Positions 6,428 through 14,148 of a stretch of DNA of 32,000 nucleotides are shown piece by piece. The translations under genes and the position numbers were made by a program. The stretch comes from an uncultured archaeon (GTDB taxonomy: Archaea > Asgardarchaeota > Jordiarchaeia > Jordiarchaeales > Jordiarchaeaceae), in assembly GCA_964510585.1 (NCBI GenBank), contig CAZECW010000020.1:60001-92000 (forward strand). The letters run 5' to 3'. The notes beneath the pieces are model-generated. The model did no database searches and had not been told where the DNA came from. It was given only the letters and a program-made list of their open reading frames with translations. How positions within the stretch are numbered: position 1 is the first letter of the stretch; each line of letters opens with the position of its first letter.

Positions 6428-6943
6428 TTAGGTACTGTTCTTAAAGTAATGATTTGTAACGACTTTGATCATCTCTGAAAAGAGCTTCTCTAATCCCTCA
6501 CCGCTCTTGGCATTAACAGTAATCACATTACTGTCCGGCACATTAAAAACGTTCTTAACTTCGTTTAAAAATAAAGAAGCCACCGAATTTTTCTCGTTTA
6601 CGGCAATTACCATTGGAACCTCCTTACTCCCAACTATTTCCTCATAAATTGTGCGCGCCTTTGAAAGGGAGTCTGGATCCTCATTATTCACTACTAGGAG
6701 CAGAGCATTCAATCCCTTAGACAAAGATTTTCTAACCACCGAAAATTGATCCGCCCCCGGAGTTCCAAAGAAATGAAAACGCGAGCCATCCACATCAAAA
6801 TATGTATAATCCATACAAACGGTAGAACCCGCAGCATCAATATGAATAAACCCTTTTCCACTAAACTTTTCCGCCAACCTTGAAACAATTTCCGTTTTGC
6901 CGCTAGCCCGCGGTCCCGCCACCACAACCTTAAACTGCTGCAT
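6428..6943 (-). CDS. Small GTP-binding protein, MglA/MJ1339-like family
   Basis: G1 GPRASGKT, MDY before the G3 strand, G3 FFGTPG, G4 region VNEKN, G5 region NAKSGEGL; 171 aa. Confidence 0.85.
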   Translation of the reverse strand: MQQFKVVVAGPRASGKTEIVSRLAEKFSGKGFIHIDAAGSTVCMDYTYFDVDGSRFHFFGTPGADQFSVVRKSLSKGLNALLLVVNNEDPDSLSKARTIYEEIVGSKEVPMVIAVNEKNSVASLFLNEVKNVFNVPDSNVITVNAKSGEGLEKLFSEMIKVVTNHYFKNST

Positions 6944-7202: not shown

Positions 7203-7218
7203 ACCCCCGGCGGGGGGT
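7203..7218 (-). other. Short GC hairpin directly 3' of the SECIS-like element (possible terminator or stabilising stem)
   Basis: Minus strand A-CCCCC-CGCC-GGGGG-T at the end of the hdrA-mvh operon, before an AT-rich intergenic region. Confidence 0.4.
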
Positions 7219-7222
7219 GTCC

Positions 7223-7257
7223 CCGATGTCTTCCCTCTTCGGGGTTTCAGACACCGG
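7223..7257 (-). promoter_or_regulatory. SECIS-like element (selenocysteine insertion sequence) in the 3' UTR of the vhuU-like gene
   Basis: Minus strand CCGGUGUCU-GAAA-CCC-CGAAGA-GGG-A-AGACAUCGG: a 9-bp lower stem (one G.U), a purine internal loop and a 3-bp C-G upper stem. It matches the archaeal stem-GAA-CCC-loop-GGG-A-stem SECIS pattern and lies ~85 nt downstream of an in-frame UGA at the Sec position. Confidence 0.85.
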
Positions 7258-7258
7258 A

Positions 7259-7408
7259 TCAGCCGGAGCCAATCACAATCTCTTTGCTCGCAATCTCCTT
7301 ACCCTCACTGTCAAGGATAACAAGATGCGCCGAACAGCTAAGTCAGCAGTCATATGACCGCATAACCATCTCCAAGAGATTAAGAATCTTTGGGTCGATT
7401 TCTGGCAT
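7259..7408 (-). CDS. vhuU: VhuU-type selenoprotein: separate C-terminal peptide of the [NiFeSe] hydrogenase large subunit (49 aa, Sec at codon 22; absent from ORF track)
   Basis: Translation MPEIDPKILNLLEMVMRSYDC-U-LSCSAHLVILDSEGKEIASKEIVIGSG*. In-frame TGA at 7345-7343 falls at the first ligand of the L2 motif (DPxxxCxxH). It has its own RBS (GGAGGA, 7423-7418) and a different frame from mvhA. Confidence 0.92.
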
Positions 7409-7434
7409 TTTTCCTTATCCTCCAACTATTTTCC

Positions 7435-8748
7435 TTAAGTCTTTATCATGGGCTCGGGGAGCTTCAATTTTTCATGAATCTTATCCTCAAATACTTGCTT
7501 GGCAGTCACCAAGAAAGATTTCTCCACAGCGGCAATGTTGTGATTCGTTGCGACAATCAGGTTTGCCTTTGTACATATCCCTTTCTCATCAGACCAGTAG
7601 TGATGTATCAATGTTCCACGAGGCGCCTCAACTACACCCACACCGTTACCCTCCCTAGGCTCCACATCCGCCAGCTTAACATCGGTACTCACAATATCAG
7701 GATCCTCAAGCAGCATCTTCGCCTTCTCCACAGCTTCAACCAGTTCAACTACCCTGGCCCAATTATATGCAAGGGTGGCGTGGCACGGTCTACCAACAGC
7801 ATCCCTGAACTCCTTAAGGGCTTCTTGAGCCAGAGGAGTTTCCATTTTATCCGCAACATTTATACGCCCCAAAGGTCCTGCACGCCATATTCCATCAGGA
7901 TAACTTGCAGGCTTGAAAAATATGTGGGTAGCATAGGAATGGGGAGCCACATGTTCCGCCACATAGTCCAAATAGTCCTTCTTCGCAAAATCCGCGACAA
8001 TCTTGCCATCAGGGCTCATAACTCTAACCGTTGCGTCACCAAAAATAGTATGCACACCTTCCCTGGCAAGACCAATATAGTATGAATCAAAGACTCCCAA
8101 CTTAGTAATAACATCCAAATAGTCACCAACAACCTTCCTAGCCAAGTCTAAAGTAAATTTGGCAAGCTCCATAGCTCTATCAATTCGCTTCAGTTGCTCG
8201 TCGCGCTCCTCCTCAGTCATAGGCTTAGATTGGCCACCTGGAACAGATGTGACTGGATGTATAGCTCTTCCGCCTACCAAGAAGCAGAGATCCTGGCCAA
8301 TTTTCATAAGCTCAATGGCTTTCTTACCAGCGTCAGGTAAATGTTTAATCACAGTGACCACATTTCTATACTGCGGTTCAGCAAGTGGTCCCACTAAAAA
8401 GTCTGGAGCTGCCAACGCATAAAAGTGCAGGGCATGACTGGAAATAGTTTTCGCTTGGAGAAGGAGGTCTCTAAGCTTTAACGCCGCCTTTGGTGGAGTT
8501 ATGCCCCAAGCAGCTTCAACAGCACTTACCGAAGCCAAGTGGTGGGCCTCGGGACATATACCACAAATTCGTGGCACTATACGGATAACTCGCTCCATTA
8601 GGCGGCCTTCGACGAACTTTTCGAAGAAACGTGTAACTGTTACGCCAAAGTGGGCATCTTCCACTTTATTATTCTTGTCAAGTTTTATTACAATTTTTGC
8701 ATGTCCTTCAAGTCTGGTTGCTGGTTCAATAACAATCTCCTTACTCAT
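7435..8748 (-). CDS. mvhA: F420-non-reducing hydrogenase large subunit (MvhA/VhuA), lacking the C-terminal L2 motif
   Basis: N-terminal TRLEGH, L1 motif RICGICPEAH and GVGVVEAPRGTLIHHY. It ends ...KLPEPMIKT at TAA with no DPCxxCxxH. Confidence 0.95.
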   Translation of the reverse strand: MSKEIVIEPATRLEGHAKIVIKLDKNNKVEDAHFGVTVTRFFEKFVEGRLMERVIRIVPRICGICPEAHHLASVSAVEAAWGITPPKAALKLRDLLLQAKTISSHALHFYALAAPDFLVGPLAEPQYRNVVTVIKHLPDAGKKAIELMKIGQDLCFLVGGRAIHPVTSVPGGQSKPMTEEERDEQLKRIDRAMELAKFTLDLARKVVGDYLDVITKLGVFDSYYIGLAREGVHTIFGDATVRVMSPDGKIVADFAKKDYLDYVAEHVAPHSYATHIFFKPASYPDGIWRAGPLGRINVADKMETPLAQEALKEFRDAVGRPCHATLAYNWARVVELVEAVEKAKMLLEDPDIVSTDVKLADVEPREGNGVGVVEAPRGTLIHHYWSDEKGICTKANLIVATNHNIAAVEKSFLVTAKQVFEDKIHEKLKLPEPMIKT

Positions 8749-8749
8749 A

Positions 8750-9661
8750 TTATTTCGCCTTCCTCACTGTTTTTGAGATTATGCCCGATGGTAAGAAGAA
8801 GTTGTAAAAAGTGCCGGCGACATCACCGACTTTTTCAACAAGTTCCTCCGGGCTTATAGACTCATAATCTACTATCGAGCCGAGTGCACTAATCATCTTA
8901 GCTCCCTGATCTATCACATTCGGCCCAGGGCCGTAGCATCCCCTGCAGGGCATTCCGGCCTTTGGACATAGTGCGCCACATCCCTCGCGGGTAGCGGGGC
9001 CCATGCAAATGTATCCTTGCTCCAATAAACACTTTTTTGGATCCGGTATCCCTTCATAGTCTCTCTTCAACTGTTTTATAGTAATTACCTCAGATTTCTC
9101 CCTGGGACATTCGTCACACAGAGTACGCACAGGTGGCTTCGGTAACTCTCCCTTCAATAAGCCGAGTATAGCATCAGCAATGTCCTTAGAAACTACTGGG
9201 CATCCTGGAAGGAAAACCTCAAAATCTACTATCTTCCTGTTTGGCACAATGAAGTCCAACATTTTCGGGACGTCCTCTTCAGGGATATTAGGTTCTTGGA
9301 CACTTTCTGCCTCCACAAACTTGCGCTTCAAAGCTTGGTCAATAGTGGTGAGATTAAGCAATCCATATATTCCACCATAAGTGGAACAGGTACCCAAAGA
9401 AATCAGAGTCTTACATTTCTTCCTCAAAGTTTTTAAGATGTGCACGTCTTCCTCTGTCCTGCAGACGCCCTCAACAATACCTACATCAATTGAACCATCC
9501 TTGTAACTCTCCAGATCCTTATACTTAAAGTCAGTAACCGTGTGCCAGAACTTGATGTCCAGCTGGGGCAGAATGTCCAAAAGGGCTTCGTGAGTATCAA
9601 GCAAAGATTGATAGCAACCCCAACAACTTGCCAATGAAACCATAGCTACTGTAACGGGCAT
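8750..9661 (-). CDS. mvhG: F420-non-reducing hydrogenase small subunit (MvhG/VhuG)
   Basis: Motifs LASCWGC, VEG, GTCSTYGG, LPGCP, CDECP, CLL..G..CMGP.T..GC.A.CP and PCRGC. Confidence 0.95.
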   Translation of the reverse strand: MPVTVAMVSLASCWGCYQSLLDTHEALLDILPQLDIKFWHTVTDFKYKDLESYKDGSIDVGIVEGVCRTEEDVHILKTLRKKCKTLISLGTCSTYGGIYGLLNLTTIDQALKRKFVEAESVQEPNIPEEDVPKMLDFIVPNRKIVDFEVFLPGCPVVSKDIADAILGLLKGELPKPPVRTLCDECPREKSEVITIKQLKRDYEGIPDPKKCLLEQGYICMGPATREGCGALCPKAGMPCRGCYGPGPNVIDQGAKMISALGSIVDYESISPEELVEKVGDVAGTFYNFFLPSGIISKTVRKAK

Positions 9662-9679: not shown

Positions 9680-10108
9680 TTACTCCTTATCCTTACTTAG
9701 CGGACTTGGTCCAAGCTCCTTCAATTTTTTAACGAAATCGTTCATAACCTCAACCAAAACATTACCTTCACTAGCAGAAATCCACTCCAACCTCAGCCTT
9801 TCAGGCTCAATCCCCAGTTGCTCAATTAACTTCCTAACAAGCTTAATCCGTTCCTCAGCCCTATAATTACCAGTAACATAGTGGCAGTCGCCATGGTGGC
9901 ACCCTCCAATAAACACGCCATCTGCACCCAACTCGAACGCCTTCAGAATAAACTGGGGATCAACACGACTGCTACACATAACTCTAATAAACCTCACGTT
10001 CGGAGGATACTGCATTCTACTAGTGCCAGCCATATCAGCGCCAGCATACGTACACCAGTTACACAAAATCCCAACAATCCTAGGCTCAAATTCTCCGTTA
10101 CCACCCAT
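9680..10108 (-). CDS. mvhD: Hydrogenase [2Fe-2S] subunit MvhD (all-Cys form)
   Basis: Motifs LCNWCTYAGAD, RVMCSSRV and GCHHGDCHY. GAGGTG six nt upstream supports the ATG at 10108. Confidence 0.95.
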   Translation of the reverse strand: MGGNGEFEPRIVGILCNWCTYAGADMAGTSRMQYPPNVRFIRVMCSSRVDPQFILKAFELGADGVFIGGCHHGDCHYVTGNYRAEERIKLVRKLIEQLGIEPERLRLEWISASEGNVLVEVMNDFVKKLKELGPSPLSKDKE

Positions 10109-10113
10109 AAAGC

Positions 10114-12066
10114 TCACCTCTTCATCGCCGCCTCTATCTGAGCCATCACCTGGTTAAACTTGAAGTGCTGCGTATCTATAGCTCCACTGGGACAGGCAGC
10201 GGCACAGGCCCCACAGCCCTTACATAGCACACTGTTTATGTTAGATTTGCCATCCACAGTCATACCAATTGCTCCATAGGGACAGATGTCCTGACATACC
10301 TTGCACCCAGAGCAGAGTTCCTCGTTTACAATGCTGAAATAGGGCTCAATCTCAACTTCTCCCATACCCATAAGTGCTATTGCAGCTGCAGCCGCGCCTT
10401 TTCCCTGAGCCACAGCATCTGGAATATCTTTCGGTCCCTGAGCCATACCCGCCACAAAAACTCCGTCTGTTAGAGTGTCTACAGGGCGCAGTTTAGGATG
10501 TGCTTCCAGCAGGAATCCATCCGCGCTTCTGGAAAGCCGGAATAAATGCTGTATTTGTTCGGTTTCCTCTCTGGGAATCACCGCAGACGCTAAAACAACC
10601 ATGTCTACCTCCAGCTCCATAAGCTGACCCAGCAAGGTGTCCTCTGCACGAACCATTAGTTTATCCGTCCCAGGAACACGCCTCACTTCAGCAACTCTGC
10701 CACGTACAAAGTTAACCCCATACTCTCTTCCAGCTATCTCGTAGAACTCATCGTAGCCTTTTCCGAAAGTTCTCATATCCATGTAGAAAATGAAAATTTC
10801 AGTGTCAGGATACTTCTCTTTAATCTGCCTAGCATGCTTCACACTATAAGTGCAGCATACCCGGGAACAGTACGGAAACAGCCTCTGGTCACGTGAACCC
10901 ACACACTGTATGAAGGCAATCCGCTTCGGCTTCTCATGAGTCGTTGGAACTATAACCTTGCCACCAGTGGGGCCAAACGAGCTTAATAATCTCTCAAGTT
11001 CCAGCGAAGTAATAACATTGGGCAAAATACCATAACCATATTGAGGAGCATCAAAGGGTGTATACACATCATAGCCCGTAGCAATTATCACCGTGCCTAC
11101 TTCCAGCTCTATCTCCCTCTCCTGCTGGTTAAAATCAATAGCCTCAGGCTCACAAACCTTCACACACAATTTACACTCTATACATTTTTCTCTATCGATG
11201 GTGTAAACGTTAGGCACTGCCTGTGGGAAGGGAACATAAATGGCTTTCCTTGATCCCATACCCAACTCAAACTCGTTTGGAACAAATACAGGACAAACTT
11301 CAGCACATTTTCCACAACCAGTACATTTATCCGCCAATACATATCTGGGGTGTTCTACTATTTTGACTTTGAAATTGCCCACGTATCCCTCCACTTCCTT
11401 TATTTCACTATAACTGTGGATTTCTATGTTGGGATGCCGGGCAACATCCACCATTTTAGGGGTCAAAATGCATGCACTGCAGTCCATCGTAGGAAATGTT
11501 TTGTCAAGCTGGGCCATTCTTCCCCCTATGGTTGGGCTTTTTTCAAGAAGGTGAACCTTGAAGCCTGCATTCGCCACGTCCAGAGCTGCTGAAATCCCAG
11601 CTATTCCACCGCCAACAATAAGGCATACTGGTGTCACCTTCACCTTTTGCACTTCTAGTGGCTCCAGTCTTGCAGCCTTGGCCACCGCAATTCTTATCAA
11701 GTCCTTCGCTTTTTCCAGCGCTTCTTTAGGCTGCCTCATATGCACCCAGGTATCATGCTCCCTAATATTCGCCTGTTCATAAAGAAACTGGTTTAATCCA
11801 GCCTCCGCACACACCCTTCGAAAAGTAGGCTCGTGAAGCCTGGGACTGCAAGCCGCAACCACAATCCTGTTAAGATTGTGCTCCTTGATGTCCTGCTTAA
11901 TCATTTCCTGCCCAGGATCTGAACACATAAAACGGTAATCCTTCGCCACCACAACATTGGGCAAAGTCGCCGCATAGCTTGCCAATTCCTGCGGACTAAC
12001 AACACCAGCAATGTTCGTTCCACAGTGACACACGTACACTCCAATACGTACTTCTTTTTCACCCAT
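10114..12066 (-). CDS. hdrA: Heterodisulfide reductase subunit A (flavin-bifurcating), 650 aa
   Basis: Motifs [27 protein letters not shown] (FAD), [15 protein letters not shown], inserted ferredoxin, CVGSRD..YCSRVCC and C-terminal ferredoxins. GGAGGA RBS supports the ATG at 12066. Confidence 0.97.
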
Positions 12067-12189
12067 CAGGACTTCCTCCGAACAACGGTTTGGAACTTCT
12101 AACACTAAACACAATCATCATTAAAAAATTTTCCCACGCCATTTTTTAGACGTGAAACTTCCGACTAACACGGTAATTTTTTATATTTA

Positions 12190-12671: not shown

Positions 12672-13262
12672 ATGACTGAAGACCAAAAAATAATAAGAAA
12701 AACAGATCCACAATTCATCGAAGAAATAATAGAATACGGTTCAAATTACTTCACAAAAGAAGAAATGGAAAGACTCAAAGCCTGCATCCAATGCGGCACA
12801 TGTATCGGCGGCTGTCCAAGCGGTAGGAGGACCGCGTGGCGTATTAAGAAGATTTTCAGGAGAGCTCAGCTGGGATTAAAAGAAGATGTTTTCAAGGATG
12901 ATGAGCTCTGGTCGTGCACGACGTGTTTTACCTGTCAAGAGCGTTGCCCACGTAAGGTGCCTACTACGGATGTTGTTCGTGTTATTCGTAATCTTGCTTT
13001 TAGGAGTGGTGTTGCCAATCCGAGGCATTTGGCTGTTTGTGGTTACCTTTTCAAGTTTGGTCATGCGGTTCCTATTAATGATGAGACTAGGGCAGTTAGG
13101 AAGAAGATTGGCTTGGATGAACTTCCGGCGACTGTTCACAAGTTTCCTGAAGGTTTGAAAGAAGTTACCAAAATAGTTGAGGAGACTGGTTTTAAGAAGA
13201 TTGTTGAGGATGCTCAGAAGGAGGCTCAAATGAAGGAGGCTCAGAAGGTTGAGAAAAAGTAG
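12672..13262 (+). CDS. hdrC: Heterodisulfide reductase subunit C
   Basis: Two [4Fe-4S] motifs, CIQCGTCIGGCP and CTTCFTCQERCP, directly upstream of hdrB. Confidence 0.95.
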   Translation: MTEDQKIIRKTDPQFIEEIIEYGSNYFTKEEMERLKACIQCGTCIGGCPSGRRTAWRIKKIFRRAQLGLKEDVFKDDELWSCTTCFTCQERCPRKVPTTDVVRVIRNLAFRSGVANPRHLAVCGYLFKFGHAVPINDETRAVRKKIGLDELPATVHKFPEGLKEVTKIVEETGFKKIVEDAQKEAQMKEAQKVEKK

Positions 13263-14148
13263 GTATGCTTATTTTTTGGGTTGTTTGACTCCAAATCGGT
13301 ATCCTGGTATTGAGGCTGCGACTAAGGATGTGCTTAACTTTTTTGATATTGAAGTTTTGGAGATGAATGGTGCTTCGTGTTGTCCTGCTCCGGGAGTTTT
13401 TGGTTCTTTTGATCTTTTAACGTGGTTGACTATTGCTGCTAGGAATCTGACTATTGCTGAGGGTCTGAATGCGAATATCGTGGTTACTTGCAATGGGTGT
13501 TATGGGACCCTTCAGGAGGCTAATCATATGCTTAAGTCGAATAAGGAGTTGAGGGAGCAGGTTAATCAGTTGTTGGCTAAGATTGGAAGGGAATATAAGG
13601 GTAAGGTCGATGTGGTGCATGTTGTTGAAGTTTTGCGGAACGATGTGGGTCTTGAGAGGATTAGTGATAGTACGGTTCAGCCTTTGACTGGGGTTAAGGT
13701 TGGGGTGCATTATGGTTGCCACTTTTTGAAGCCTAGTGATGTGAGGCAGAAGGGGAATCCTGAGACTCCAGTTATTATGGAGGAATTGATTAGTGCTGTG
13801 GATGCGGTTCCTTTGGAGTATAAGGATAAATTGATGTGTTGTGGTGCTGGTGGTGGTGTGAGGGCTGCGAAGATTGATGTTGCCCTAGACTTTACCAAGG
13901 AGAAGATTGATAACATGTTGGCTGCGGGTGCTGATTGTGTTTGCACGCCTTGTGCGTTTTGTCATTTTCAGTTTGATGCGGGGCAGCAGGAGCTTAATGC
14001 TAAGTTGAAGAATGGTCACTATAATCTTCCAGTGATTTTTATTACTCAGCTTATTGGGCTGGGACTGGGCATATCGCCGGTTAGAATGGGATTATACGAT
14101 AATAAAACCCAGGTTCAAACCTTGCTTGATAAGATTCGTGGAGCCTGA
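13249..14148 (+). CDS. hdrB: Heterodisulfide reductase subunit B
   Basis: Two CCG domains (FLGC...SCCP...CNGC and YGCH...CCG...CAFC). TTG start overlaps the hdrC stop region. Confidence 0.95.
   Translation: MRKSRYAYFLGCLTPNRYPGIEAATKDVLNFFDIEVLEMNGASCCPAPGVFGSFDLLTWLTIAARNLTIAEGLNANIVVTCNGCYGTLQEANHMLKSNKELREQVNQLLAKIGREYKGKVDVVHVVEVLRNDVGLERISDSTVQPLTGVKVGVHYGCHFLKPSDVRQKGNPETPVIMEELISAVDAVPLEYKDKLMCCGAGGGVRAAKIDVALDFTKEKIDNMLAAGADCVCTPCAFCHFQFDAGQQELNAKLKNGHYNLPVIFITQLIGLGLGISPVRMGLYDNKTQVQTLLDKIRGA

Follow-up and report, generated by a model that had tools for sequence, protein, structure and literature searches.

A short gene with an in-frame UGA codon probably encodes the selenoprotein subunit VhuU of a split group-3c hydrogenase in hot-spring Jordarchaeia

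A 49-codon gene behind a hydrogenase large-subunit gene that lacks its C-terminal motif

The stretch of DNA analyzed here (32,000 nucleotides, referred to as the window) carries a hydrogenase operon on its minus strand in the order hdrA-mvhD-mvhG-mvhA-vhuU, with hdrC and hdrB divergent from it. The hdrA gene (10114..12114, minus strand) matched the NCBIfam model HdrA2 with 948 bits and contains Fer4 and FAD domains. It is followed by mvhD/vhuD (9680..10117, minus strand), which matched Pfam FlpD with 194 bits as well as NCBIfam VhuD and the C-terminal part of HdrA2. Both hdrA and mvhD are uninterrupted frames of the Cys form. The hydrogenase small subunit is encoded by mvhG/vhuG (8750..9661, minus strand; Pfam Oxidored_q6), and the [NiFe(Se)] hydrogenase large subunit, of 437 amino acids, by mvhA/vhuA (7435..8748, minus strand; Pfam NiFeSe_Hases). 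On the plus strand, hdrC (12672-13262) and hdrB (13249-14148) were recognized by their Pfam Fer4_8/Fer4_17 and CCG domains. The locus links large, small, and delta hydrogenase subunits to HdrABC, as in the group 3c Mvh/Vhu-Hdr complex. Downstream, ~300 nt past the vhuU terminator region, is a gene for a small Ras/Arf-like GTPase of 171 amino acids (6428-6943, minus strand), of a kind typical in Asgard genomes.

The large-subunit gene ends early. MvhA shares 95% sequence identity with proteins from metagenome-assembled genomes (MAGs) of Jordarchaeia/Freyarchaeota. It contains the N-terminal nickel-ligand motif RICGICPEAH, and its frame closes at a TAA codon (7437-7435). The C-terminal Ni-binding motif DPCxxCxxH was not found in its 437 residues, in agreement with a first-pass annotation of this DNA, made from the sequence alone, which had placed the mvhA stop before that motif. 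The best NCBIfam match of MvhA was VhuA, with residues 4-420 aligned to model positions 3-417/418; the score of 524 bits compares with a curated cutoff of 800 for a model tuned to Methanococcales. Its best match in the PDB was the large subunit of a split enzyme (9sfi_g, 418 amino acids; E 7e-140), aligned over residues 3-417 of that chain. Unsplit MvhA chains, of 472-473 amino acids, were covered by MvhA only over residues ~4-416, with the match ending near 410-416.

The first-pass annotation had further claimed that a separate gene with its own ribosome-binding site, encoding M...EMVMRSYDC-(UGA)-LSCSAH and a 21-residue tail, begins 26 nt past the mvhA stop, and this description proved exact. 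Translation of the minus strand gives a 49-codon selenoprotein gene, vhuU (7259..7408), that starts at an ATG codon (7408-7406) after a 26-nt spacer (7434-7409). The ribosome-binding site GGAGGA (7418..7423, minus strand) lies 9 nt before this ATG and is also kept in congeners. Read from 7408 to 7259, the peptide is MPEIDPKILNLLEMVMRSYDC-U-LSCSAH-LVILDSEGKEIASKEIVIGSG, in which U is residue 22, specified by a TGA codon at 7345-7343. The codon for His28 (7327-7325) is followed by the tail and then by a second TGA, the stop codon, at 7261-7259.

Several comparisons point to the identity of this peptide. Its best NCBIfam match was VhuU (NF041786; E 6.2e-16), with a score of 57.9 bits against a curated equivalog cutoff of 70, the query having C in place of U and the model being tuned to Methanococcales. 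When the peptide was aligned with the solved 27-residue VhuU chain 9sfi_M, the X of that chain, which represents Sec, sat opposite U22; the VhuU-type identity proposed in the first-pass annotation agrees with this alignment and with the best family match. The peptide also matched the C terminus of solved MvhA (E = 1e-6) at residues 423-453, an alignment in which U22, encoded by the in-frame UGA, falls on the first Cys of the C-terminal Ni-binding motif; the sequence here is D-C-U-L-S-C-S-A-H. Because the matches of MvhA and of the small peptide abut on unsplit MvhA (~4-416 and 423-453), we regard mvhA and vhuU as together encoding one large subunit. The matches of this mini-gene to VhuU, to the MvhA C terminus, and to Asgard genomes are far beyond chance.

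Gene catalogues miss vhuU. Standard gene calling yields only a 21-codon open reading frame (ORF) at this position (7343..7408), and the full peptide was absent from a catalogue of 5.8 billion predicted proteins, in which the only homologue was a paralogue with Cys in place of Sec. That ORF callers would overlook the gene had been anticipated in the first-pass annotation. The value of recognizing vhuU lies in correcting the annotation: if the gene is overlooked, the hydrogenase linked to Hdr seems to be truncated and would mistakenly be counted as inactive in metabolic reconstructions.

A SECIS element, a second hairpin, and the selenocysteine-decoding genes

A SECIS-like hairpin had been noted behind the gene, and we found it to be both conserved and covarying. 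The element (7219..7262, minus strand) abuts the vhuU coding sequence and has the core C-UGA, the UGA of which is the vhuU stop codon (7261-7259). This UGA is followed by a U and then by a helix of 8 bp, in which 7257-7250 pairs with 7230-7223, plus a possible U.G pair. The apical region of 19 nt starts with UGAAA, holds a CCC/GGG mini-stem, and has the unpaired A-rich loop start of Asgard eukaryote-like SECIS elements; on the 3' side of the helix is the sequence G-GA-C, with the GA at 7221-7220. We aligned the vhuU 3' regions of 28 non-identical Asgard loci; the UGA, the loop AAA, and the GAC were invariant or nearly so, as were A22 and A23. The RNAalifold consensus for these loci included compensatory changes at all eight pairs of the helix, and 91% of the helix cells were paired; shuffled controls gave 65%, and sliding the partner strand gave 30-52%. 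A covariance model run on the source genome gave the vhuU SECIS site as its sole match, with 68.6 bits (150 of 327 candidates scored). Immediately 5' of the core UGA stands a C, replaced by U in congeners, and most other aligned Asgard loci have AUGA. An Rfam search of the window at gathering thresholds returned no match; the Asgard SECIS has no curated family. As judged from the aligned loci, the hairpin 3' of vhuU is conserved and covarying, its UGA and GA flanks match those of the eukaryote-like Asgard SECIS, and it is probably such an element.

The same alignment contains a second hairpin, 3' of the SECIS (7203..7217, minus strand). It begins 2-7 nt past the SECIS GA in 28/28 loci and is rich in G+C with a GCAA or GCC loop, reading CCCCC-GCC-GGGGG here and ACCCC-GCAA-GGGU in most other Asgard vhuU 3' untranslated regions (3'UTRs). 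Compensatory changes were seen at three of its four pairs, and 94% of cells were paired. By eye, the 3-4 bases that follow it (CGCC, GCC, or GCU) could pair with the Gly codons that precede the core UGA, which would give a lower stem and a three-way junction.

The first-pass annotation supposed that the organism recodes UGA as Sec and suggested looking for tRNA-Sec, SelB, SelD, PSTK, and SepSecS elsewhere in its genome. All five were found in the source genome (3.78 Mb, 96% complete), a result that speaks for the supposition. The genes for SepSecS (512 bits), SelB (302 bits), and PSTK (207 bits, the best match yet below the curated cutoff) lie within ~7 kb of one another on contig C146. The selD gene, on contig C193, itself contains Sec, with UGA in the motif G-U-S-C-K. 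It is interrupted between D-V-Y and A-I-G-G by a 30-nt insert with an in-frame TAA (L001:1756-1791), and deleting these 30 nt restores the canonical motif. The insert forms a hairpin flanked by two 3-nt bulges, and in two congeners (G117 and G118) the stem is kept and the loop is variable. It is very probably a bulge-helix-bulge (BHB) mini-intron, and it must be removed for selenophosphate synthesis to work.

The tRNA-Sec gene (C146:17100-17256, minus strand) lies just beyond the pstK-selB-SepSecS cluster. We located it through a weak match in a congener, followed by a BLAST search back to the source genome. It has a 9-bp acceptor stem, a UCA anticodon in a CUUCAAA loop, a long variable arm, and a 4-bp T stem, and it carries two inserts, one in the D-loop and one in the T-loop. 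When the gene was spliced in silico, ARAGORN called tRNA-SeC (tca) in 447 of 3024 variants, and these made up 447 of the 450 variants with any call; left unspliced, the gene scored 22.6 bits. The model RF01852 gave no match in the source genome at the default E-value, nor in a 57-kb scan of the Sec cluster. It is because of the two inserts that standard tools miss this tRNA. Across the whole 3.78-Mb assembly, ARAGORN and RF00005 found only 5-7 tRNA genes, so the lack of a tRNA-Sec call is uninformative. A count this low is consistent with tRNA genes that are heavily interrupted by introns.

Conservation of the UGA codon and alternative readings of it

Of 400 Asgard genomes searched in six frames with the vhuU peptide, 325 had a match, and exactly one in-frame TGA was present in nearly all of the ~150 best matches listed. 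We extracted 36 loci, from Jordarchaeia, Thor-, Hel/Loki-type, and other Asgard archaea. The motif D-C-U-L-x-C-x-A-H was present in 36/36, and all 36 had exactly 27 codons after Sec, with a conserved tail sequence. The stop codon was UGA in 35 of the loci, and 33 had a full-length frame of 49-57 codons. Behind the UGA, substitutions within the genus fell mainly on third positions (0.067, 0.079, and 0.299 per site at the first, second, and third codon positions, respectively); over all loci, the rates were 0.285, 0.169, and 0.528. Such a third-position bias is the signature of a translated frame. Comparison of these loci shows the 27 codons after the UGA to be under purifying selection.

The UGA could be read as Cys or as some other residue, for example under selenium limitation, in which case the active site would be of the [NiFe] and not the [NiFeSe] type. 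Misincorporation of Cys at Sec codons is known in other systems, and this general precedent, together with the existence of an orphan Cys paralogue of the peptide in congeners, speaks for such a reading. However, the organism keeps a complete set of Sec-pathway genes and a dedicated SECIS, the codon is TGA and not TGC or TGT in almost every Asgard copy listed, and in the Cys paralogue, which is unlinked to mvhA, Phe replaces the conserved His. We therefore consider decoding as Cys or another residue improbable.

Still less probable is that the UGA at 7345-7343 genuinely ends translation, such that MvhA is truncated, inactive, or decaying and the frame downstream is untranslated. A true stop would agree with the 21-codon ORF obtained by standard gene calling and with the absence of the full peptide from protein catalogues, but it leaves unexplained why, in 36/36 loci from several Asgard classes, the stretch behind the UGA is always 27 codons long and conserved in amino-acid sequence, with substitutions biased toward third positions. 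The essential CxxH ligands are also encoded there, and the gene is followed by a covarying SECIS in a genome that has the Sec machinery. The least probable reading of all, a sequencing or assembly error for TGC or TGT, had nothing in its favor and is excluded in practice, because contigs of three independent hot-spring metagenome runs (X3, X4, and X5, from different studies) cover 7343-7345 with the TGA unchanged, and TGA occupies the same codon in five congeneric and many other Asgard genomes.

Decoding of the UGA as Sec thus remains the preferred reading, and the TGC or TGT at 7343-7345 that the first-pass annotation had named as a refutation did not appear in independent metagenome assemblies; relatives, too, keep TGA. 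DNA of the vhuU locus recurs in hot-spring metagenomes, and the sole difference inside vhuU in the contigs of the three runs was a synonymous change, GGC to GGT, at 7262.

The orphan Cys paralogue occurs in another genome of the genus (G119, C227:4767-4913; L067), where it reads D-C-C-L-S-C-S-A-F, with Phe for the motif His, ends in a TAA stop with no SECIS behind it, and does not adjoin mvhA. The sole homologue of the vhuU peptide in the predicted-protein catalogue, a 49-amino-acid protein from a Jordarchaeaceae MAG (P0003), is a Cys paralogue with the same D-C-C-L-S-C-S-A-F motif. No Cys paralogue was found in the source genome with the vhuU peptide as the query.

Predicted function of VhuU and comparison with known systems

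From the evidence of sequence, the product of vhuU is very likely the small, Sec-containing subunit of a split [NiFeSe] hydrogenase of group 3c, composed of VhuA and VhuU with MvhG and MvhD, in hot-spring Jordarchaeia. In the mechanism that we propose, the SECIS would recruit SelB carrying Sec-tRNA(Sec), and the UGA at 7345-7343 would be decoded as Sec. Translation would end at the second UGA, which lies 84 nt downstream and forms the SECIS core, since that codon would be too close to the SECIS structure for recoding. After insertion of Ni and Fe, a HycI-type endopeptidase may clip the tail past His28 or, given that the solved VhuU chain ends in H-M, past the next residue; two maturation proteases of the HycI family are present in the source genome. 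The resulting peptide of ~28 residues would provide Sec22 and Cys25 as Ni/Fe ligands and so complete the VhuA active site. Together with HdrABC, the enzyme would form a flavin-based electron-bifurcating or -confurcating H2:heterodisulfide/ferredoxin complex.

The first-pass annotation had stated that Sec-VhuU is reported in Asgard archaea, and it has in fact been published for this class. Sec-containing VhuU was found in Lokiarchaeota in 2016 as VhuU.1, with a lokiSECIS (Mariotti et al., PMC4989117). A 2024 survey found VhuU in 68% of Sec-using Asgard archaea (Huang, Xiao & Zhang, PMC11227280); its supplementary VhuU alignment includes one Jordarchaeia genome (GCA_019056875), and VhuU was listed for Freyarchaeia in the same year (PMC11291895). 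The Asgard family goes by the joint label FrhA/MvhA/VhuU. Because the gene and its recoding signal were published for Asgard archaea, Jordarchaeia and Freyarchaeia included, between 2016 and 2024, both were already known. In biological terms, the locus adds nothing beyond the published Asgard Sec-VhuU, and its novelty is the missing annotation.

Like the loci of other Asgard archaea, this one has a ~50-codon gene immediately behind a large-subunit gene that is short at its C-terminal end, one Sec residue, in a UxxC arrangement, and the D-C-U motif that is typical there and in the published alignments. As in the VhuU.1 of Lokiarchaeota, the stop UGA doubles as the core UGA of a eukaryote-like SECIS abutting the coding sequence. 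Unlike the Asgard SECIS as reported, which has [A/G]UGA, the element here has C before the core UGA. Its helix of 8 bp plus a possible U.G pair compares with a reported stem of ~9 bp. The apical region in this genus is longer (19 nt, type-II-like, with the CCC/GGG mini-stem), whereas the published major frhA/vhuU form is type I with an 11-nt loop. A further difference from the published Asgard systems is that hdrA and mvhD at the vhuU locus are Cys forms.

The enzyme is similarly related to VhuA/VhuU of Methanococcales (NF041785/NF041786; PDB 9sfi/9t1s, chains g and M), in which the large subunit is split, VhuA has ~418 amino acids, and VhuU supplies the Sec-x-x-Cys-x-x-His end, as vhuU does here. 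MvhA fits the split VhuA chain above unsplit MvhA (470 versus 373 bits), and methanococcal VhuU precursors carry a similar C-terminal extension (PMC11227280 supplement). Unlike the Asgard gene, the methanococcal one encodes D-P-U-Y and has a euryarchaeal SECIS of the GAA_A type further into the 3'UTR; also unlike Methanococcales, the host here is not a methanogen.

The residue before Sec separates nearly all Asgard VhuU from the other groups. D-C-U is present in 36/36 of our Asgard loci, and D-P-U is found in Methanococcales and bacteria; the supplement of the 2024 survey (PMC11227280) contains 178 D-C-X-L sequences, 14 methanococcal D-P-X-Y sequences, and 3 D-P-X-L sequences from Lokiarchaeia. 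The main text of the 2016 report (PMC4989117) does not mention the D-C-U pair. This Asgard-wide Cys-Sec pair at the active site, along with the second hairpin, might merit attention. We can imagine, with considerable doubt, that the pair gives the [NiFeSe] site a chemistry of its own, such as a reversible selenenylsulfide that protects or gates Ni, and that together with the second hairpin it marks a functionally distinct Asgard subtype and not a plain orthologue of methanococcal Vhu.

Finally, the MvhA that bacteria and methanogens make as an unsplit protein, with Sec or Cys (for example, 5odc_F, 9sw2_F, and L019-L021), belongs to the same group-3c enzyme and has the same kind of C-terminal motif and tail. 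Unsplit MvhA is one polypeptide, whereas here a separate gene, equipped with a ribosome-binding site of its own and a 3' SECIS, carries the motif. In Sec-containing forms from bacteria, the SECIS would have to lie within the coding sequence, just past the UGA. Three bacterial relatives of MvhA, from Syntrophobacterales/deltaproteobacterial MAGs (L019-L021; 46-49% identity), are unsplit and have an in-frame TGA in the motif D-P-U-L-S-C-A-T-H, and a relative from Blastocatellaceae (L023) has Cys at that position.
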